This document shows, piece by piece, positions 1 to 60,560 of a DNA stretch of 64,000 bases. Both the position numbers and the translations under genes were made by a program. This DNA comes from Octopus vulgaris (taxonomy: Eukaryota). The notes under the pieces are model-generated. The model was not told where the DNA came from. It saw nothing but the letters and a program-made list of their open reading frames with translations, and did no database searches. Numbering within the stretch: the first letter of the stretch is position 1; each line of letters opens with the position of its first letter. The DNA is taken from the NCBI GenBank assembly GCA_951406725.2, contig OX597830.1, positions 59,892,001 to 59,956,000 of the forward strand, read 5' to 3'.

Positions 1-375
1 GGTAGCACGCCGGGCGAAAAACCTAGCGGTATCTCGTCTGTCGTTACGTTCTGAGTTCAAATTCCGCCGAGGTCGACTTTGCCTTTCACCATTTCGGGGT
101 CGATTAAATAAGTGCCAGTTACTCACTGGGGTCGATGTAATCGACTTAATCCCTTTGTCTGTCCTTGTTTCTCCTTTCTGTGTTTAGCCCCTTGTAGGTA
201 GTAAAGAAATAGGTATTTCGTCTTTACGTTCCGAGTTCAAATTCCGCCGAAGTCGACTTTACCGTTCATCCTTTCGGGGTCGATAAATTAAGTACCAGTT
301 GCGTACAGTGGTCGATCTAATCGACTGGCCCCCTCCCCCAAAATTTCGGGCATTATGCCTAGAGTAGAAAAGAAT
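1..375 (+). mobile_element. Two tandem copies of tRNA-derived SINE family B (first truncated by the window edge)
   Basis: B-box-like GAGTTCAAATTCC followed by the conserved body GTCGACTTTGCCTTTCATCCTTTCGGGGTCGAT-AAATAAGTACCAG; about 15 copies in the window. Confidence 0.85.
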
Positions 376-759
376 ATTTGATGCAACGTTTTTAAATGTC
401 TCCAGATATTGTATAGAACTTTTTATTTCTTTATTTATGTAAACGTTTTCCAAACAACTGTTAGCGAGAATCATTGATTGAATAAAATGGGTTTGTAAGG
501 AAGACAGGAAGAAAAAGGTGGGGACCTGTTGCTGGAGAGGGTCCATCATTGGAAAGAGAAAAGCCGAGAGTAAGGAAGAAAGGTGACGTTGAGAATGTCC
601 CCTATGACGTTGCTGATTGGTTTTTGAGTGGCGGCGGCAACCATAACAGTCATCGTCGTGGTGGTCGTGGACGTGGTTGTCATCGTCGTCATCAGCATCA
701 TCATCACCATAATCATAATGGAAGACGTTCAGTGAGTGACAAAAAATAGGTGCTAGGGA

Positions 760-1183
760 GGGAAAATGATAGAGAGGAAGAAGAAAACGACAGCAGGAGG
801 AGGAGGAAGAGGAGGAGGAAGGGGATGGGGAGGAGGAAGGGAGAAGAGGAAGAGGTGGAAGATGAGGCAGGAGAGGAGGAAGAGGAGGAAGAAGAGGGTG
901 AGGCGGAAGGGGCAGGGGAACGGGGAGGAGGAAGAGGAGGAGGCGGAAGAAGAGGGGGAGGAGGACGGGGAGGAGGAAGGAGAGGAGGGAGAGAATCATA
1001 GCGAAGATAAAGAGAAAAAGAGCAAAGAATTGAAGGAGGAAGAAAATGAGGATCAAGGCGAAGGTAATGATATACGATAGAAGAAAATGTGAGTGAAGGG
1101 GGAGAGTGTTAGTGTGCGGAGGAGAGAGAGAAAGATAACGAAAAAGGAGGGAGGGAGGGAGAGAGAGAGAGAGAGAGAGAGAG
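760..1183. repeat. Purine-rich (GGA/GAA)n low-complexity tract ending in (GA)n
   Basis: Direct reading; source of spurious Glu/Gly/Arg-rich ORFs. Confidence 0.9.
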
Positions 1184-1389
1184 TCATGTTTATTATTGTA
1201 GGTATTGGTGTGAGGTGTGATGGGTAGGTGTGTGTTGGCTTACGGCCTGCTCGAGAGATAAACAGACAGGTAAGGTAGACAGACTACAGACAAACAGACA
1301 GACATGGGCAGACAAATAGACGACACGAGCAAAAAAAGGGACGGGCAGACACAGATATATAGACTGAGAAACACACACACACAATCGCG

Positions 1390-1440
<51 letters not shown>

Positions 1441-1919
1441 ACATATACACTCACACACATATACGCACGGTTGGATACACATGGAAATAGAGAAAAATTT
1501 GATTGTCGGGAACGTTACGCAGACGCAAACCGGCACAGCATAAAAAAAAAAAAGCAAGCAAAAAGCCAGAAACTATTCCCAAACTCAGTAAGGACACGGC
1601 TAATTAAAGACAATGTGATGCAGGCGGACAGAATCATTGGCAAGGAATTGTTACAGAGCGAATCAGTGTTACGAATAGACTCAGATGGACAAATTGACTC
1701 AAACAAATAAATTGTCGCAGACAAGCAGCGTGGATAGACTCGTTCTTATATAGTGTTACAAATAAACTCAGAAGACAGTGTCACGAATGGATGGATATTG
1801 ACAATGACAGCGTGTGTGTGTGTGTGTGTGTGTTGAATAGACCAGATGATATGCGATTGTTCTTCTTGCTCTCTACGCTCTAATTTGAAATCCGGCCTCG
1901 TTCGACTTTGCCTTTTATA

Positions 1920-2128
1920 CCTATTTCTTTATTACCCACAAGGGGCTAAACATAGAGGGGACAAACATGGACAGACACAGGTATTAAGTCGATTACATCG
2001 ACCCCAGTGTGTAACTGGTACTTTATTTATCGACCCCGAAAGGATGAAAGGCAAAGTTGACCTCGGCGGAATTTGAACTCACAACGTAACGGCAGACGAA
2101 ATACCGCTAAGTATTTCGCCCGGCGTGA
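1920..2128 (-). mobile_element. SINE family B copy
   Basis: Reverse complement of the copy at 9572-9808. Confidence 0.85.
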
Positions 2129-2194
2129 CCGATGTTATCGACTAATACCCACTTTCTTTGTTTACTGTAATATATGTACTGTGATGTTTACTAT

Positions 2195-2398
2195 TTTACT
2201 TGTTTCAGTCATTTGACTGTGGCCATGCTGGAGCACCGCCTTTACTCGAGCAAATCGACCTCAGGACTTATTCTTTGTAAGCCTAGTACTTATTCTATCG
2301 GTCGCTTTTAACCAAACCGCTAAGTTACGGTGATGTAAACACACCAGCATCGGTTGTCAGGCGATGATGGGGGAGGGGGAGACAAAAACACAGAAACA

Positions 2399-2443
<45 letters not shown>

Positions 2444-2611
2444 ATATACATATATACAACAGGCTTCTTTCAGTTTCCGCCTACCAAATCCACTCACAAG
2501 GCTTTGGTCGGGCCGAGACTATAATAGAAGACACTGCCAGATGTGCCACGCAGTGGGACTGAACCCGGAACCATGTGGTTGGTAAACAAGCTACTTACCA
2601 CACAGCCACTC
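2195..2611 (-). mobile_element. SINE family A copy (tRNA-like head, internal microsatellite)
   Basis: Minus strand: A box TGGCTGTGTGG, B box GGTTCAGTCCC, internal (CA)n, tail ...CAGTCAAATGACTGAAACAAGTAAAA. Confidence 0.9.
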
Positions 2612-2900
2612 GTTTGTTAAATTATCATTTTAACAGTAATGATCTGATTTATGATGAGCGATATCTCTTGGAAAAGGTTATCCATTTGAACGATCTAAAC
2701 TCTCAGCAATTACAAACACCCGAAACCTCTTACCGTCACACACTTATATTACATCTGTAAACATCAATAACATAACTTCCAAACGGACATAAAGGTGTTT
2801 GGCCAACCTGCTAGAAATAACAGTTGTCATCACCACGACTCCGCTCCCCTCTCTTCATTTATATAAGCGAAACACATCACTTTAAAAAACAGTACAAAGC

Positions 2901-3335
2901 TCGGATCTTTTCGGTTTGAACGGCAGTTTTTTCTAGTGGTGTCATAGGAAATTGTCACCCATAATTATGACCGTAGAATCGATCTATTGCCTTTCAATGT
3001 CTTTTAGGGTTAGGGTTAGTTAGGGTTAGGTTTAGAGGTGGGGGAAGGGTATCTTTTTTTCTTCACAAATGTAAATAAACCCAATCTGTTTCTTAAACGA
3101 GGGACATATTCATACGGCACAGAATGCTTTTTAACTCAATAGACGTCACTGATTGGTTGAAATTGCAGAAATTGAAGAAAAAAACAACAAATATTTTACA
3201 AACTATAGAATATTCTCAATAAAGCCAAGAGAAAAAGATGTTTTATAAACACATTCTACCAGTATACAAAGTTTAAAAGTGTTTAGTTACCAAGAAATTA
3301 TGTTAAAAACTGCCGTTCAAACCGAAAAGATCCGA
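2901..3335. mobile_element. Non-autonomous TIR element with 31-bp perfect TIRs and internal TTAGGG-like repeats
   Basis: TCGGATCTTTTCGGTTTGAACGGCAGTTTTT at 2901-2931 and its exact reverse complement at 3305-3335; TTAGGG-like run at 3003-3034. Confidence 0.85.
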
Positions 3336-3514
3336 TACACCTTCTAACTTCCTCTTTTCGACCTATACATTCTCACACATCTCAACAAAACATGCGGACG
3401 GCCTCGTGCACCAATCACATCCTACATACGACATCTTCAAACACACATACAAACATCATACTATGATAATGATATAAATGGTTTAAGCTAGCAGCCACCA
3501 AATCCGCTACATAT

Positions 3515-3680
3515 ATACGACGGGCTTCTTTCAGTTTCCGTCTACCAAATCCACTCACAAGGCTTTGGTCGGCCCGAGGCTATAGTAGAAGACACTTGCC
3601 CAAGGTGCCACGCAGTGGGATTGAACCCAGAACCTAGTGGTTGGTTAGCAAGCTACTTACCACACAGCCACCCTTACGCC
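3515..3680 (-). mobile_element. SINE family A, 5' half
   Basis: Matches the family A head and body up to the microsatellite. Confidence 0.8.
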
Positions 3681-4129
3681 TACTTGTTTATTATTGTTCT
3701 TATTTTATCTTATGTCCGTTGTCTGGGTATCTTTCGTCACTCATCTGTGACATGTTCAGCGACTCTTCCATCCTCGTGTGCAAATCGTTCTCGAGTTTTT
3801 TTTTTCTAGGGGGTTTTGTCCTATACTAGCCACATGCAAGCAGAAATAAATAAGACATCAATGGTCTTACTGGTCCCTAATATTGTACTAGGATGTATAC
3901 TACCCACAATAAGTGCAGTGGAACAGTAATTGTCACGTTCTGACTTAAGTTTTCCCTTGCTTAGCTCCTCTGTGACCACCACTAGGGTCAACGGGCAAAA
4001 TATATGGATTGATTGGTGAGTGGGAGAGTGCATCCCGTCCTGGTTATAATACTACCGACCAACGTACGATCCATCACAGCATGTCAGAGTGTTTGGTGAG
4101 AAGATGTAATTGAGGTGGTCGATCTATAG

Positions 4130-4383
4130 CAATGATCCTCAACCATTTTTTAGCTATGGATCTTTTTAATTACTATTTTACTCGGATTGAACCCACCCAC
4201 CCAGCTATTTGAGGTTTAAAAAAACCTTGTTATATTTTTATAATCAAATATTATTAGGAATTGTTTAAAAAATATATTTTGAGTATTGTAGAAGTATAAT
4301 TGATTTATTGCATCTAAATTTTAACAGCAAAATTTTATATGTGGCCCCTGAAGGGTCATATGTACCCCGGTGGAGAACCTTTA
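4130..4383 (+). mobile_element. hAT-like MITE, degenerate copy
   Basis: Collinear with copies at 6410-6635 and 7805-8060 (shared ATATTTTTATAATCAAATATTATTAGGAATTG core). Confidence 0.65.
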
Positions 4384-4870
4384 TGGATCGGGCCTTATCA
4401 TTCAGCTGACTACCTGCCATAAGACTGAGCTGATTTGGAGGACGGGGGCCTTGCACATCAACAACGGTGGCACCACTCCCATGCGGCAACAATCCCCACC
4501 TCATCCCCCATCACCACCACCACCATGACAATTAATGAAAAATATAAACCATTACAAGTTAAAATAAAAATAAAACCATGTTTTATGGGGTGTCGCTTTA
4601 CTTCTGTCCTGTCTGTGTGTATTTCATATGCGCACGAATGCGTGCGTGTATATGTGTGTGTGTGTGAGTGTGTGTGTGTGTGTGTATGTGTGTGTGAGAG
4701 AGAGAGAGAGAGAGGTTGATTGAGGAGTATGTACTACGTGCTGTTTCTCTTTGCAGCGTGTGTATATGATGTCTGTTATATGTAGACGTCGTGTGTATAA
4801 TGTTGTTTGCGAACGTTCACATCTATAGATGCATTGTGCATGAGAGAGTGGAGGAAGATAGCTTGAAACA

Positions 4871-4935
<65 letters not shown>

Positions 4936-5149
4936 AAAGAGAGAGAAGCGGTGGATATTGGGATAAGTGGTGAATGAAGGTGGAAGAAATGGCGCAGAAA
5001 ACAAACGACATAGATTTATTGATCGACGATTATCAATTTAACATCTATGATATATTGAGCCGTGTTCTTGAGCAGAGGACCAACATTACAAAATAGATGC
5101 TATTTGACATGGTAAACGGCATTGAGTGCGTAGATGTTGACAGGATCTA

Positions 5150-5302
5150 TGTTCCGAGTTCAAATTCCGCCGAGGTCGACTTTGCATTTCATCCTTTCGG
5201 GGTCGATTAAATAAGTACCAGTTACGCACTGGGGACGATGTAATCGACTTAATCCGTTTGTCTGTCCTTGTTTGTCCGTTCTATGTTAGTAAAAAAATAG
5301 GA
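5150..5302 (+). mobile_element. SINE family B, 5'-truncated
   Basis: Family B body motif. Confidence 0.8.
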
Positions 5303-5343
5303 TATACAATACAAACATATATGCATGTGTTTATGTATATCTA

Positions 5344-5650
5344 GGCGCAAGGCCCAGTGGTTAGGGCAGCGGACTCGCGATCGTAGGATCGTGGTATCGA
5401 TTCCCAGACCGGGCGTTGTGAGTGTTTATTGAGCAAAAACACCTAAAGCTCCACCAGGCTCCAGCAGGGGGTGGTGGTGATCCCTGCTGTACTCTTTCGC
5501 CACAGCTTTCTCCCATTCTTTCTTCTGTTGGCCTGCTCGCTTAGCTAGCGGGGTGGCGTCATTTGAAGGGTAAAATAATGCGAAGCGCATTGTGACCAGC
5601 GATGTGTAGCAACATCTGATAGCCTGGTCGGTCACGGTGATCACGGTAAT
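5344..5650 (+). mobile_element. tRNA-derived SINE family C
   Basis: GGCCCAGTGGTTAG A-box-like and GGTATCGATTCCC B-box-like motifs with tRNA spacing, non-tRNA body, short tandem 3' end (TCACGGTGA TCACGGTAA). Confidence 0.7.
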
Positions 5651-5734
5651 ATGTATATCTATTTTTGAATGTACATGTACGTATGCATGTATGGATGTGT
5701 GTATGTATATTTATGCGTATACGTATGTATATAC

Positions 5735-5773
<39 letters not shown>

Positions 5774-6409
5774 CGTGTGTGTGTATTTATGTAGATACCC
5801 ACACATACGTACGCACATATGATCATATGTTTACAGTGATGGCAAACCGTATGTAGATACCTTTTAGCAACAAACTGCATTGATGTTGTTTAGCTCTTGA
5901 AGTCATGTAGACCCATCAATAAAAGGCATTTCAGCCGTGACCATCTCCTTCTACCCCCACACACTGTATATCGAAGATTATATTATCCAATGTAATATGC
6001 ATGTAATTCTTAACTATTGATAGTTTCGTAGGGACGCCTTCGTGACAAACTGTGTGTCTGGATCATTGCAGATCTGGTGGGGCCCCTCCCTCTTCAGGTC
6101 TGAACATAAACAGTTTCTTCCAGAGAGGAAGAGACAGATGGAGAACCGACTCCAGTTTTTAGCTGGTACTTTCTTTATCGACTACGAAAAGACAAAAGAT
6201 TCAGTTGACTCCAGAGGGATTTGAACTTAGAGCTCAGAGAATCAAGACGAGTACTGCAAGACATTCCATCCAACAGTCCAACAGTTCTGCTAATACGCTG
6301 CCTTTTGTCTATTATTACTTTTTCTTTTAAGGCGTTAGACGTGGGATTTGAGGGAGATTTGGCAGCTATTTCTTCTTTAGTAAGTCGAGTTCATAATAAA
6401 CCTCTCGGC

Positions 6410-6635
6410 CAGTGTTTCTCAACCATTTTTTTACCTATTGACCCCTTTGATTTCTATTTTACCCAAGTGGAACCTCCTCGTCAACCGATGCCTTAAAATA
6501 TATATTTTATAATCAAATATTATTAGGAATTACATAACAAAAGATTATAACCATTTTATTGAACATAAATCTTAACAAAAACAAAATCTTAAATGGACTT
6601 CTAAGGGCCATATGGACCCCGGTTGAGAGCCACTG
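6410..6635 (+). mobile_element. hAT (Charlie-like) MITE
   Basis: TIRs CAGTGTTTCTCAACC / GGTTGAGAGCCACTG; 8-bp flanks CTCTCGGC / CTCTAGAT (degenerate TSD). Confidence 0.75.
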
Positions 6636-6677
6636 CTCTAGATATTGTCCAGAGAGGGAGAGAGAGAGAGAGGAGAA

Positions 6678-6727
<50 letters not shown>

Positions 6728-7277
6728 GAATATAGATTTTTGGATAATTTGTCTACAAAGTCTGTAAACTGATGGTTTTTGGTTATTTCCTGATTATTTC
6801 CGACTTATTTCCAATGTTTTTCGCTATGATAACAACCTCAGTGAGATTAATTGTATACAGTGATGATGAAATAATCAGTAATTAGCGAACAATGTTAATT
6901 AACTGAACAAGCAAGAGAAACAGTTCCGAATGCGTTTGTCTTGTTGGGTTTCATCTGCAGCGTTATTTATCTTTCGTTAGCATTAATCTCATAAATAATC
7001 TGCGAAAAGGAGCCTCCATGAAAACGATTCCCAGCCCCTGGGAATCCGCAATGAAGCTGCTAGGATGGAGCTGTGAGCGTGTTGAATAGAAAAGACTTCT
7101 CAAAAGACTAAGGTCTATGAAAAAATCAAATTGAAATACAAAGGGGCCATGGCAAACATTTTCCTCCCTTAAACCTTTCCATTATATCTTTAGAAAGGGT
7201 ATGTAGCAGTGGTACCTATGGACCCCTTTCGGTTCTTATTTTATTTGGATGGACCTCCCCACCAGCCATTTATAATT

Positions 7278-29930: not shown

Positions 29931-31930
<2,000 letters not shown>

Positions 31931-31978: not shown

Positions 31979-32435
31979 ATTAAAGACAGAGAAGAAAATA
32001 CTTGTAGTCTAGTAAATGTAAGTGTTCCCACTGATAAAAATATATCTGTAAAGGAATTTGACAAATTAAGCAAGTATAAGGACCTGGAAATTGAAATACA
32101 AAGGATGTGGCATCTTAAATCGAGAACTGTTGCTGTTATTGTGGGTGCCTTTGGTATGATAAGAAAGGGTTGTCAGAAACATCTAAATAATATCCCAGGA
32201 GAACCATATCTCAGAGAAATCCAGAAGATCGTGCTGACAAATACTACCCACCTCCTTAGAAATATCCTATCAATTTAATTGCTTGTGTTATATTACATGA
32301 AGATATTTCGCTACTGCCCCTGCCACTTCCCCTCTCTAAACTTTCAGTCAAACTGTAACATCTCTTATCCTTCACTCTCCGTAGGACGGTGGGTGCATCT
32401 CGGCGAGTGATTGTTACAGATATACAGATTAAAAA
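31979..32435 (+). mobile_element. Second Dong-type 3' fragment in tandem
   Basis: KDREENTCSLVNVSVPTDKN... near-identical to the C-terminus of the upstream copy; preceded by (TAA)n. Confidence 0.9.
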
Positions 32436-32463
32436 TAAACAACAACAACAACAACAACAACAA

Positions 32464-33018: not shown

Positions 33019-33029
33019 AAAAGGGGTCC

Positions 33030-33610
33030 CCCATAAGACATGACAGACTAGGGCAGTGCATCCATTGGAATGCTTGTAAATGCTACAAAATTAAATCTCA
33101 TCATAAGTGGTAGAGACACCATCCAGAGGATGGAGTAAATGGCGAGGGCGTCACCATCCTTTGGAACTTCCCAATACAAACAGACAGAAAAATTGACTCT
33201 AAGCGACCAGAGATTGTGATCAAGGACTAAAACAGAGGAACTCGTCTGTTAATAGATATGTCTGTTCCACAAGATCAAAATCTCTCAAGAAAAGAATACG
33301 AAAAGCTTTCTCACTATAAAGATGTCCAAATCGAAATCATAAAAATGTGGAGGCTTAGTAATAAGATAATACCCTTAGTAACTGGTGCGTTGGGAATGAT
33401 AAAGAAAGGAGCTGAGAAGTATATTAAGCAACTCCCTGGTAAGTCCAATCTCCGTGAACAACAAAAGATAGCCATGATGGGTACAGCCCATATACTATGG
33501 AAAGCACTCTCCATCTAAAATGGAATAAATGTGGTGATAATTTTAGCAGATATAGCAAAACAAAAATGCCTTTGCTACTCTTGTAATCCGGAGGATGCCC
33601 GGTACTAAGG
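33030..33610 (+). pseudogene. Degenerate Dong-type RLE 3' fragment
   Basis: VTILWNFPIQTDRKIDSKRPEIVI...DMSVP...GTAHILWKALSI; follows (TAA)n. Confidence 0.85.
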
Positions 33611-33721
33611 CAGCTGAAACAAAGTTATAATGAAAGGAATCCATAAATAATATGACTGAAACCGGTACTGAAATATTTTTTATAAAATTATTTTAGTATT
33701 TTCTACCTTGACTTTTTTTTA

Positions 33722-33782
<61 letters not shown>

Positions 33783-49721: not shown

Positions 49722-50210
49722 CACGTATGTATATATGTATGATTATATATATATATGTATATATTACACTCACATATATATGTATGATGGTTTCACTTGC
49801 AAAACTAGTTGTGTTTCTTATATCTGACTTTATTATAAGTCACCACCTGAATAAGCGTATATCTACTATCTATCATATATTATCGAGTTTTTCTTTTTTA
49901 CCTTAAACTATGATTTTCTCAGTTTTTAAAACAGGTATCCACTCATATATAAATATATCCGCATGAGGTTGTGTGGTAAGAAACTTGCTTCACAATCACA
50001 TGGTTCCGAGTTCAAACCCATTGCGTGGCACCTTAGGCATGTGTCTTTTACCGTAGCCTCGGGACGGCCAAAGCCTTGTTGGCGGAAATATATATCTATG
50101 CATATAGATATGCTTTATTTAAAAGTAGCTTTTAAATAAAGCATATTACTCTACGTCTGGTATTTGAGTATTCTTTTTTCTATCTTGTTTCACATTTATG
50201 TGCTTACTCC

Positions 50211-50287
<77 letters not shown>

Positions 50288-50505
50288 TTTTATTTGTTTC
50301 AGCCATTTGACTGCGACCCTGCTGGAGCACCGCCTTTAGTCAAGCAAAACGATCTCAGAACTTCAGAACTTATTCTTTGTAGCCTAGTATATATTCTATC
50401 GGTGTCTTTTGCCGGACCGCTAAGTTACGGGGCCATAAACACATCAGCATCGGTTGTCAAGCGATAGTGGGGGAACAAAAACAGACACACAAACATATAC
50501 ATACA

Positions 50506-50588
<83 letters not shown>

Positions 50589-50591
<3 letters not shown>

Positions 50592-51120
50592 GAAAATAGT
50601 AATGCAATACGAGAGTATTGCTTTCCAGTAAAGGATAGCCCGTGAGGGTAAAATTATACATATAAAAGTAAATAAATGGCACAACGAAGCACCGATATTT
50701 ACTGGAAAATAGCGAACGTAATAAATACGACGCTAATGTATAGCTTCACTGCGTATGTACTAGTAAAGATGCGTGTGTGCAACAAACAGGAAAAAAATTG
50801 TCTTACCTCTAGGAAGAACATCTGAAAAATGAAAAACTTAGAAACGGATAATGCAGTACCGGTTTCAGACTCTCCAAAATACGTTTGCCAACGTATAGTT
50901 GATTTGTCTTCATCAGCTGCATAAACCTCGACAACATTTCAAATGTTGCCACATCTATGCCAGTACACTCGTTTGAACGCCAAAACGTTAACAGAACGAG
51001 AACAGTGAAGAAGTTTCAATGAAAATAGTAATGCAATACGAGAGTATTGCTTTCCAGTAAATATCGGTGCTTCGTTGTGCCATTTATTTACTTTTATATG
51101 TATAATTTTACCCTTACGGG
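50589..51120 (-). mobile_element. ORF-less hammerhead-bearing retroelement (Penelope/retrozyme-like), 429-nt unit
   Basis: Exact 44-bp direct repeat 50589-50632 / 51018-51061; 70-bp inverted repeat 50639-50708 / 51051-51120 (1 mismatch); internal HHR; ends in (TA)n. Confidence 0.8.
50851..50922 (-). ncRNA. Type I hammerhead ribozyme motif, intact core
   Basis: Minus strand AUGCAG CUGAUGA AGAC...GUCU GAAA CCGG UA CUGCAU: 6-bp stem I, 4-bp stem II base with inner hairpin, palindromic ACCGGU stem III. Confidence 0.85.
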
Positions 51121-51124
51121 TAAA

Positions 51125-51760
51125 ATATCAGAGACAATTGCTCCACTTTCAGTTACAAGCATGAAGATAGTGGATCAGATCTCTTTGAGCCTTTCGATAG
51201 TAGCAACTAAGGCAGTAGGGGCTTTCACCAGCTGCAGTGTACTTCAGTACACACAAGTGGTAAATGGAGTCAAGAGATTTTCTGTAATTAAGCCATACTC
51301 TCACAAGATTGCCGCAGTATTTTTCTACTTCAGACATCACTGTTATATTTACCAAAATAATCCCCACATGCCTTTCTTTCCAACTATCTGTTTGTCAGCG
51401 ATTATATCGTTTTAGATACGCAATGGTTTTGCAGGAATTGCTTCAGACAGCTAGAGTACAATTTATTTAGGTAGGCAAAGGAGCGATAGTTCTCTGATTG
51501 TTCTTCCATCCAAATTTTCTGCTTTTTTTTAAAGACTCAATATTCTGCTTTATGTACTTTATTGTGGAGACATGCAGGTCTTAACTTGCCTTCTCTAACC
51601 AGGTTTCCATCCCCTTTTCAGCTATATCCAATGGCTAGTCCACTCAAATTCTGACTGCATTTTTCTCAAGATGGCGTTAACTTGATGATGTTTCATGCCG
51701 ATTGATAACGACCACCATCTTGTTCTGGTTCCAATAAAATCTCTACATCCAACCTCTGAA
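51125..51760 (-). pseudogene. Degenerate Dong-type RT N-terminal fragment
   Basis: NLVRVWLNYRKSLDSIYH resembles the RT motif W.DYKKAFDSVPH. Confidence 0.55.
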
Positions 51761-51931
51761 GGAAATTTTGTGTGAGTGAGTGAGTGAGTGAATGTCGGTG
51801 TGTGTACTGCATTCAAAGGGCTCTGGGGAAGCTATAAGATGTACGGGCCACACAGCTTTGAGTGCACGCTTACTTACAGCAGAAACAGTCGTAAGCCAAC
51901 GTTAGTTATTACGTAATTCCTGTTCTTTAGA

Positions 51932-52295
51932 CAGGAGTGGCTGTGTGGTAAGTAGCTTGCTAACCAACCACATGGTTCCAGGTTCAGTCCCACTGCGTGG
52001 CATCTTGGGCAAGTGTCTTCTGCTATAGCCCCGGGCCGACCAATGCCTTGTGAGTGGATTTGGTAGACGGAAACTGAAAGAAGCCTGTCGTATATATGTA
52101 TATATGTGTGTTTGTGTGTCTGTGTTTGTCCCCCTAGCATTGCTTGACAACCGATGCTGGTGTGTTTATGTCCCCGGCAAAAGTGACCGATAGAATAAGT
52201 ACTGGGCTTACAAAGAATAAGTCCCGGGGTTGATTTGCTCGACTAAAGGCGGTGCTCCAGCATGGCCGCAGTCAAATGACTGAAACAAGTAAAAA
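51932..52295 (+). mobile_element. SINE family A with short centre
   Basis: Full head and tail match. Confidence 0.9.
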
Positions 52296-59148: not shown

Positions 59149-60560
59149 CAGCCTTGACCAAAAGTATTAGGCCACCCCAATGTTTGGGGGTTCTGCTGTT
59201 TCAATGTTAATGAAACTCGAGCACATAGTAGATTATGGTATATTTCACAATATGCATTAGTTTTAGTATCTGGTTGACCCTCCTTTAGCATCAATTACCG
59301 CATTTATGCTGTACTGTACTTATGCAACCAATTATGAGTTAGACCAACGTCCAAAATTAACTTATGTTTCCTTGATTATTTCAGAGTTTTATGCTAAATT
59401 ACTTTGTAGGTACAGTTAATAAACAGTAAACTGCCTAAAACAAGGGAGTTGAGTGAGTTTGATGGAGGTCAAATCGTAGGTCATCATGAAGATGGAATAC
59501 GTCAAAGGCAAATTGCTCAGAATATGAAATGTTCTCGATGTGCGGTGCAAACGACTCTCAAGCGCTTCAGAGAGACAAAAGATGCGAAGACAACACAAAG
59601 AACAGGTAGCAAAAAGGTTGCATCCACTTCGTGATGACAGATCCATCATCTGTCAGTCGCTAAGGAACAGGAGAAAAACATCGTTGGTGCTCCGTGCGGA
59701 CTTCAACAAGGCAAACACTTCGCAAATACCAACCAGAACTGTTAGAAGAAGGCTTGTAGAGTACGGTCTGAAAGGCTGTAAAGTCAGGAAGAAGCCATGG
59801 GTTTCTGAAGAGAAATAGGGAAAAACGTCTTCGGGGGCCAAAATATATATAAAGAAATATCCAACATAAAGCTAATATTATTTTTCATATTTTTACTCAG
59901 GTTTTCAGTACATCTGGTGCAACGTTCGTGCGTTGCAGAGTTGGGGAAGCATTTAAGGCTGAATGTCTGGTACCCACCGTAAAACATGGGGGTGGTTCTA
60001 TCATGGTGTGGGACCTACATGTCTACTACAGGACCCGGAGAAATATTTTTTATGTGAGGGAAGGATGAATTCAGCTACCTATGTTTCTATGTTATCGGGT
60101 ATTTTAGAGCCATCAATTGCTAAATTATATCCAGGAGTGTCGAAAAACAGTGTTATCTTTCAATAGGACAAAGCTCCATCTCATACAGCAAAGAATACTC
60201 GTCCTTGGTTTGAGACACAGGGACTGTCCAGCTCAAAGTCCCGATCTAAATCCAATCGAATACCTATGAGGAACTCTTGGCGAAGCTATCGGGAACACAG
60301 CAATTAAAAATAAAGAGCATTTGTACCAAACATTAAGAGAAGAATGGAGTAAAATTGCACCTAGCCCCTGCAAGAAACTAGTTGATTCAATGCCTAAGCG
60401 TATAAAAGCGGTAATTGATGCTAAAGGAGGGTTGACCAGATATTAAAATTTATGTATATTGTGAAATATACCATAATCTGCCATGTGCATGAGTTTCATT
60501 AACATTGAGACAGCAGAACCCCAAAATATTGGGGTGGCCTAATACTTTTGGCCAAGGCTG
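59149..60560 (+). mobile_element. Full-length inactive Tc1-family transposon
   Basis: About 105-bp TIRs (59149-59253 / 60456-60560) starting CAGCCTTG, TA on the left and TG on the right; broken transposase about 59431-60446 with PKTRELSEFDGGQIVG, PTVKHGGGSIMVW, FQ*DKAPSH, PAQSPDLNPIE, AKGGLTRY*. Confidence 0.93.

Follow-up and report, generated by a model that had tools for sequence, protein, structure and literature searches.

Animal non-LTR retrozymes are a described class (PMC7229834; bioRxiv 10.64898/2026.07.22.740005), and a 2026 preprint by Li, Clavereau and Pollet treats retrozymes as non-autonomous derivatives of Penelope-like elements (PLEs) (bioRxiv 10.64898/2026.07.22.740005). According to the discussion of PMC7229834, arguments about which enzyme moves animal retrozymes still draw on co-occurrence and trees. 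The preprint concedes that evidence on the life cycle is limited and reports that one of nine Xenopus retrozyme dimers was cleaved in vitro (bioRxiv 10.64898/2026.07.22.740005).

For PLEs, PMC8557442 (text and legend to Fig. 2) gives an insertion layout with a truncated unit before a full unit, an adjacent inverted 5'-truncated copy, a tail of 30-40 bp at one end and a preference for (TA)n. In Adineta, the inverted pLTR and the direct one share an overlap of 15 bp, a TSD is missing from part of the insertions, and self-priming has been proposed (PMC3846280). An Anolis PLE was characterised in vitro, where AT-rich DNA was cut and extended on both strands, the tail was delimited by two internal RT starts and uncleaved RNA served as the chief substrate (PMC11167929). 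As judged by titles or abstract openings, none of the papers listed on twin priming with Penelope dealt with PLE inversions. The genome of Octopus vulgaris was reported to consist of PLEs to 6.83%, with 31 recently active families (PMC13282606), so that partner PLEs would be at hand in this species; ribozymes are not mentioned in the main text of that report. No cephalopod is named in the accessible text of the review PMC7761336, and among the papers listed there was no report of an octopus hammerhead ribozyme or a cephalopod retrozyme, although the family described here may already stand in Repbase or Dfam.

The DNA analysed, called the window in the following, is a stretch of 64,000 nucleotides from Octopus vulgaris (contig OX597830.1, positions 59,892,001 to 59,956,000 of the forward strand). 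An earlier note on this stretch had proposed a retrozyme-like unit that was copied from an RNA of more than one unit with a template switch at an 11-nt repeat, and both the anatomy of the locus and the joins seen in other family members support this proposal. Quite likely, the element belongs to an abundant repeat of 429 nt that is non-coding, is arranged head to tail and carries a predicted type I hammerhead, and this dispersed copy was inserted by the RT and endonuclease of an autonomous PLE that acted in trans. The layout itself, which the note had taken to be special, turned out to be the standard one of PLE insertions (PMC8557442, PMC3846280), and animal retrozymes had been described before (PMC7229834). 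The following features are given in window coordinates.

50294..50516, minus strand: 3' half of the window's common SINE, an older host element (aligned with the SINE copy at 51930-52290 in 224 columns with 77% identity)
50495..50588, no strand: (TATG)n(TA)n, the internal SINE microsatellite and insertion target (TRF and sequence; the same internal repeat is present in other SINE copies)
50589..51017, minus strand: monomer of 429 nt without coding capacity, member of a family with high copy number (37% GC; strong fold on the hammerhead strand; family depth)
50589..50638, minus strand: putative PLE-type tail of 50 nt outside the terminal inverted repeats, with a 7-bp hairpin at 50604-50621 (geometry and analogy to PMC8557442, PMC3846280 and PMC11167929)
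50622..50708, minus strand: 3' domain closed by an 11-bp stem (50698-50708 / 50622-50632; pair probability 0.56-0.61), the presumed template-switch site
50851..50922, minus strand: predicted type I hammerhead, in which helix III (2 bp) is palindromic and helix II is extended; cleavage predicted at 50857/50856 (pattern and fold)
51018..51061, minus strand: partial tandem, a 44-nt upstream unit that is 5'-truncated and contains tail sequence only (repeat comparison)
51051..51120, plus strand: inverted copy, 70 nt, of 50639-50708 (69/70), with an 11-nt overlap with the direct part (BLAST)
51105..51126, no strand: terminal hairpin with 9-bp arms and a 4-nt loop (BLAST self-match at the outer end)
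51127..51450, no strand: right flank, essentially single-copy and without TSD, with the same junction in the public runs X1 and X5 (contigs of these runs)

Comparison of the window with itself confirmed the exact 44-bp repeat by which the monomer had been delimited: 50589-50632 and 51018-51061 are identical at 44 of 44 positions with a spacing of 429, and the match can be extended on neither side. The unit is also non-coding, as the note had stated, its longest stop-free frame being 79 aa without a Pfam match, and no ORF lies within or adjoins it. BLAST against the window likewise recovered the 70-bp inverted copy (51051-51120 versus 50639-50708; 69/70, E 6e-30) together with the 11-nt microhomology through which it had been said to be joined. 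This overlapping word is one arm of an inverted repeat internal to the unit (50622-50632 / 50698-50708), and by itself an 11-nt inverted repeat was also obtained in 255 of 2000 shuffles of the unit. The parts of the unit that are represented in inverted and in direct orientation are separated by a 6-nt gap. At the outer end, the last 6 nt of the terminal hairpin (51121-51126) are non-unit sequence and are likely to stem from fold-back synthesis.

By analogy with PLEs, we infer that 50589-50638 corresponds to a 50-nt tail and that the 44-bp repeat would be a minimal upstream unit. The hairpin at 50604-50621 in this segment has a pair probability of 0.995, and the putative inner tail boundary, at which the inverted piece begins, was taken from the window copy. 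At 50806-50830 (minus strand), immediately 3' of the hammerhead, there is a polypyrimidine tract containing CAG, followed by a 15-nt ATG-initial stretch and a strong splice-donor-like site at 50806; as a speculation, this might be a relic of the mini-exon of a PLE terminal repeat.

The hammerhead at 50851-50922 was the sole match when both strands of the 64-kb window were scanned. Helix I comprises 6 bp (50922-50917 / 50856-50851), the core consists of CUGAUGA (50916-50910) and GAAA (50866-50863), and helix II has 4 bp, is closed by an A-U and not a G-C pair and continues into a long hairpin. Helix III has 2 bp and a 2-nt loop, its six letters forming a palindrome, and the triplet at the predicted cut 50857/50856 is GUA in the window copy. 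Rfam gave no match at gathering score across the window, and at E up to 10 none of its nine matches over 50400-51300 was a hammerhead, probably owing to the long helix II. Pattern scans of metagenome and viral contigs gave no matches. The ribozyme had been called canonical, a word that goes slightly too far in view of the A-U pair that closes helix II, a helix III of 2 bp with a 2-nt loop and the missing Rfam match.

When folded as a circle, the hammerhead strand of the unit reached -111 kcal/mol compared with -83.6 for shuffles (z about -5.2; 0/60 as good), and as linear RNA the z score was -5.3 (0/100 shuffles as good). The hammerhead region alone had a z score of -1.4, and 17 of 200 shuffles folded as well. 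Helices I and II had pair probabilities of 0.66-0.95 in the fold of the unit. Dimeric and monomeric hammerhead folds were +9.7 and +10.5 kcal/mol above the minimum, respectively, which leaves a gap of less than 1 kcal/mol between them and gives the dimeric fold no clear advantage.

Elsewhere in the window, at 33601-33724 (plus strand), lies a hammerhead-like motif that has 15 exact bases around the palindromic helix III in common with the ribozyme at 50851-50922. Its core is broken, a pairing of 6 bp resembles helix II, and (TA)n forms its end; it ranked top of 1685 tiles with a score of 57 versus 55 for the runner-up, barely over background. This motif is possibly a decayed hammerhead, but it resembles the 3' end of a SINE/RTE and may have a non-ribozyme origin.

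Part of the stretch is contained in 20 of 24 listed public sequencing runs (four organism labels, nine studies); eight of these 20 runs were guessed to be RNA and none is RNA on record. Four runs were compared over 50583-51450, X1 and X5 (guessed DNA) and X6 and X17 (guessed RNA), all as short-read contigs, which may be chimeric across repeats and show neither RNA ends nor circles; positions at which many molecules start or stop did not emerge from them. Summed contig depth over 50612-51046 amounted to 21,600-396,000 in X1 and 27,300-312,000 in X5, with 75.5 and 45.2 in the flank. The resulting ratios of unit to flank, about 290-5,200 (X1) and 600-6,900 (X5), are an order of magnitude only and not a copy number, and in this sense the family has hundreds to thousands of copies.

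Most of the 1508 (X1) and 1388 (X5) aligned contigs were 90-99% alike. Contigs with 8-23 letter differences jointly span, in stretches that overlap, the region 50604-51061 and cross both joins, 51017/51018 and 50632/50633, the latter being the point that matches the stop of the window's upstream partial unit. Each DNA run contained one joint that goes back (393+33 and 423+5 letters), giving a period of 426-428. In all four runs the listed loose ends at 51009-51020 are variants of the tail of the next unit, and in the short contigs listed no copy continued into an RT ORF, the outcome that the earlier note had named as speaking against a repeating unit. The share of contigs that run into unlike sequence at the unit start was 0 in X1 and X5. 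Family depth, the diverged contigs that bridge the full cycle and the loose ends that lead into a next unit together identify an amplified non-autonomous unit and not the stump of a coding element.

These data also bear on the possibility that the copy is a rare by-product, arisen by internal deletion or truncation, of an autonomous PLE that is itself abundant and the terminal repeat of which would give the depth. PLE-type ends and the hammerhead would suit such an origin, as would the depth peak over the 3' part of the unit (50699-50814), which is expected from 5' truncation. However, there is no low-depth gap within the unit (the lowest listed all-depth is 10,030 in X1, more than 100-fold the flank), 51017/51018 is crossed by diverged contigs in both X1 and X5, and the unit-start loose ends and the absence of unlike run-on in the DNA runs also speak against a by-product, which we therefore regard as improbable. 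As an identity for the element, a truncated autonomous PLE was rejected, because an ORF with RT and GIY-YIG was missing and the listed unit-start loose ends enter the next unit in 4/4 runs. The protein scan covered 119 of the 149 stop-free frames (at least 70 aa) of the window and found no PLE RT or GIY-YIG among them, and two frames matched Tc1-type HTH families; the 30 omitted frames lie mostly over SINE copies, simple repeats and LINE frames. Fragments of a Tc1/mariner transposase (HTH_23, HTH_Tnp_Tc3_2) are located at 59410-59815 (plus strand).

Among the 40 family variants listed, CUGAUGA, GAAA and helix III were unhit. The triplet is GUC in 53% and 47% of the depth of the DNA runs, as compared with GUA in the window copy, and the majority letters at 50874 and 50898 improve the pairing of helix II. 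Other copies have the same 3' end, as TA-rich sequence precedes 50593 in a loose end of X6 and 51022 in one of X17, and opposite-strand joints were present at other places of the unit (50770/50831 in X1, 50727/50842 in X17). Both the fixed 3' end and the inversions are thus recurrent in the family. Two contigs of X6 leave the unit at the hammerhead, before 50925, and continue for about 129 letters, the sense strand of which begins with a different CUGANGA core; this hints at a related family with another hammerhead. Neither this loose end nor another one behind 50878 in X5 is accounted for by the preferred explanation, and both may mark related families.

That the 3' end of the unit runs into the (TA)n of a SINE half, as previously noted, was confirmed, the left flank being a SINE 3' half followed by (TATG)n(TA)n. 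On the opposite side of the insertion, no SINE head was detected. This is no sufficient ground for a loss of the head through the insertion, because SINE halves lacking a head are also present at other sites of the window. A single SINE family, which contains an internal microsatellite, occurs at very high density throughout (32 BLAST pieces from 2198 to 58510), and several of its copies are split at the microsatellite or are without the half beyond it. Between a SINE head fragment and (TA)n lie two adjacent short palindromes, perfect or near-perfect by eye, at about 50087-50113 and 50112-50145. The insertion has no poly(A) and no simple-repeat tail of its own, and a TSD was not detected, the test giving at most 2 nt.

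Inverted duplications adjoining microsatellites are common assembly artefacts, and a fold-back or chimeric read has to be considered as the source of this one. Such an artefact is highly improbable here, as the junction of the inverted segment with the flank (51091-51450) was found with 0 differences, unbroken and at single-copy depth in two independent runs, X1 (organism A) and X5 (organism C), and as the inverted copy carries one mismatch. A contig starting at 51091 suggests that other copies have the same variant, and with many copies this mismatch allows no decision on a second template. No empty allele was seen in X1 or X5. At five positions, about 1.2% of the unit, 88-99.6% of family depth has a letter other than that of the window copy, which agrees with one mismatch per 114 duplicated bases. 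Since the right junction is common to two differently labelled samples, the insertion is not very recent. Of the recent insertion proposed before, the small amount of private change (about 1%) stands, but the shared right junction does not fit, and the window copy is young but probably fixed. Behind the junction, 51134-51190 has a few extra diverged contigs at 2-5x single-copy depth in X1 and X5 and is thus a low-copy repeat, the paralogues of which might reveal the pre-insertion sequence.

For the origin of the window copy, we infer a template that was longer than one unit and contained an uncut ribozyme site. A full or partial tandem in the genome would give rise to a more-than-unit RNA transcript, much of which a weak, dimer-type hammerhead would leave uncut; an uncut multimer is likely because this type of hammerhead is dimer-dependent (PMC4209133). 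A PLE endonuclease would then nick the (TA)n of the SINE, and reverse transcription would start at the fixed tail end 50589 and not at the ribozyme cut. After 1.1 units, the cDNA would end in one arm of the 11-bp stem, anneal to the complementary arm and be extended by 59 more bases copied in reverse. A second small fold-back would add 51121-51126, and end-joining to the right flank would complete the insertion without a TSD. The inversion may well have arisen by self-priming, since fold-back of the cDNA explains the junction as well as the extra terminal hairpin. Two flank-primed cDNAs annealed through the 11 nt, a route that is somewhat less likely, would explain the 6-nt gap and the complementary ends but not the terminal hairpin.

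The template of the window copy was likely a linear multimer, and a re-ligated circle appears unlikely. The circle would differ from the preferred explanation in the template only: dimers would self-cleave, monomers would ligate to a 429-nt circRNA and the PLE RT would copy round the circle from the fixed tail end, with the 11-bp stem serving as a built-in template-switch site, so that the repeat would be a circRNA family. This possibility is a tentative one. It would account for a copy that runs across the uncut site and whose ends bear no relation to the cleavage site, and the stable circular fold with helices I and II formed is compatible with it. Cervera and de la Pena detected circRNAs in all three species that they examined (PMC7229834), and both RNA-guessed runs, X6 and X17, contain family contigs with zero cover of the flank. 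However, an identical trace is expected from a linear multimer, and the many low-depth diverged contigs of these two runs, with no closed unit-length contig among those listed, fit read-through of many copies. Furthermore, PLE hammerheads cleave poorly in vitro (PMC4209133), and insertion did without cleavage in the Anolis system (PMC11167929). Of the proposal that an RT had moved around a circular or multimeric RNA, the more-than-unit template is therefore retained, but the circle is not singled out. As the window copy has a single hammerhead, it can yield no unit-length RNA by double cleavage; no true dimer or array was seen in the contigs, none of which was long enough for two hammerheads, and any circles of this family would have to derive from dimers or arrays at other loci.

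LINE sequences are found in the same window. A 5'-truncated LINE with RT (Pfam RVT_1) and a restriction-like endonuclease end is inserted in (AAT)n at 30088-31930 (plus strand) and presumably belongs to the Dong/R4 clade from its appearance. Two further 3' fragments of related LINE families follow at 31980-32440 and 33020-33590 (both plus strand), each between trinucleotide repeats. Homologues of a LINE RT of the window were obtained from animals only (Clytia, Penaeus, Nothobranchius, Exaiptasia). The unit might accordingly be seen as a hammerhead minisatellite that spread mainly by DNA-level processes or by the enzyme of a LINE (RTE, Dong/R4), the inversion being a repair scar. LINEs and the RTE-type SINE are frequent here, inversions of a similar kind arise in L1 by twin priming, and the 6-nt gap between inverted and direct parts would suit twin priming. 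This explanation is improbable, however, as poly(A), an own simple-repeat tail and a TSD are missing, and as other copies have in common a 3' end next to TA repeats and also carry inversions, which are traits of PLEs. Insertion by PLE enzymes in trans remains the preferred reading.

As to the relevance of the locus, the octopus family would extend retrozymes to cephalopods and adds junction-level evidence, namely a purely non-coding tandem unit with PLE-like insertion ends. The gain is incremental, because the class and its link to PLEs are already in print. If the circle were true, this would be the first family in which a circRNA intermediate and the full PLE integration signature occur together, and the enzyme that moves animal retrozymes would be named.

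On the features tested, the element belongs with the animal non-LTR retrozymes or non-autonomous PLEs, cleavage and the circle being predictions. In common with the retrozymes, it is a low-GC repeat within 150-450 bp (GC below 50%, a non-coding unit of a few hundred nt) without LTR, PBS, PPT or ORF, with a single type I hammerhead that has an intact core and a weak palindromic helix III, a highly self-paired monomer, many heterogeneous copies and head-to-tail continuity. The closest animal example is a mussel repeat of 350-390 bp. Reported animal retrozyme circles measure 170-400 nt (PMC7229834; Li et al.), and the octopus unit, at 429 nt, is slightly above this range. It further differs in its long helix II extension, the lack of a TSD and the presence of an inverted 5' copy and a putative tail; the word 'inverted' does not occur in the main text of PMC7229834. 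Under the two-unit rule of Li et al., the copy, a 1.1-mer with one hammerhead, would count as a monomer derivative (bioRxiv 10.64898/2026.07.22.740005). A plant LTR retrozyme, with a type III hammerhead in two LTRs, PBS/PPT and a 4-bp TSD, was rejected for this locus, which has a single hammerhead of type I and no TSD.

The PLE hammerheads of PMC4209133 resemble the octopus ribozyme in being type I, with palindromic positions 15.2-16.2 and loop 3, an enlarged helix II and U-rich 5' and AU-rich 3' neighbours. The octopus helix I of 6 bp and proximal helix II of 4 bp are of canonical sizes, and the closing pair is A-U, whereas G-C is conserved there (PMC4209133). Non-autonomous elements of Chlamys such as MRC1 are also PLE derivatives with pseudo-LTRs and head-to-tail insertions, but they occur in green algae and in a clade without canonical hammerheads (PMC8557442).

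The ends of the unit match published PLE insertions, with a partial tandem, an inverted 5'-truncated copy, a putative tail of about 50 nt, a TA target and no TSD (at most 2 nt). The target is (TA)n, neighbours in two other contigs are TA-rich, and poly(A) is absent. The one-end extension of 50 nt has an outer end that recurs in the loose ends of X6 and X17 and an inner end taken from one copy. Insertions of EN+ PLEs share the partial tandem, the overlapping inverted 5'-truncated copy, the AT-rich or (TA)n target, an optional TSD and a hammerhead in the repeat, and their one-end tail has a putative counterpart in the octopus copy (PMC3846280, PMC8557442, PMC11167929). Compared with them, the octopus unit is without an ORF, comprises 429 nt rather than about 3 kb and has a putative tail of 50 nt versus 30-40.
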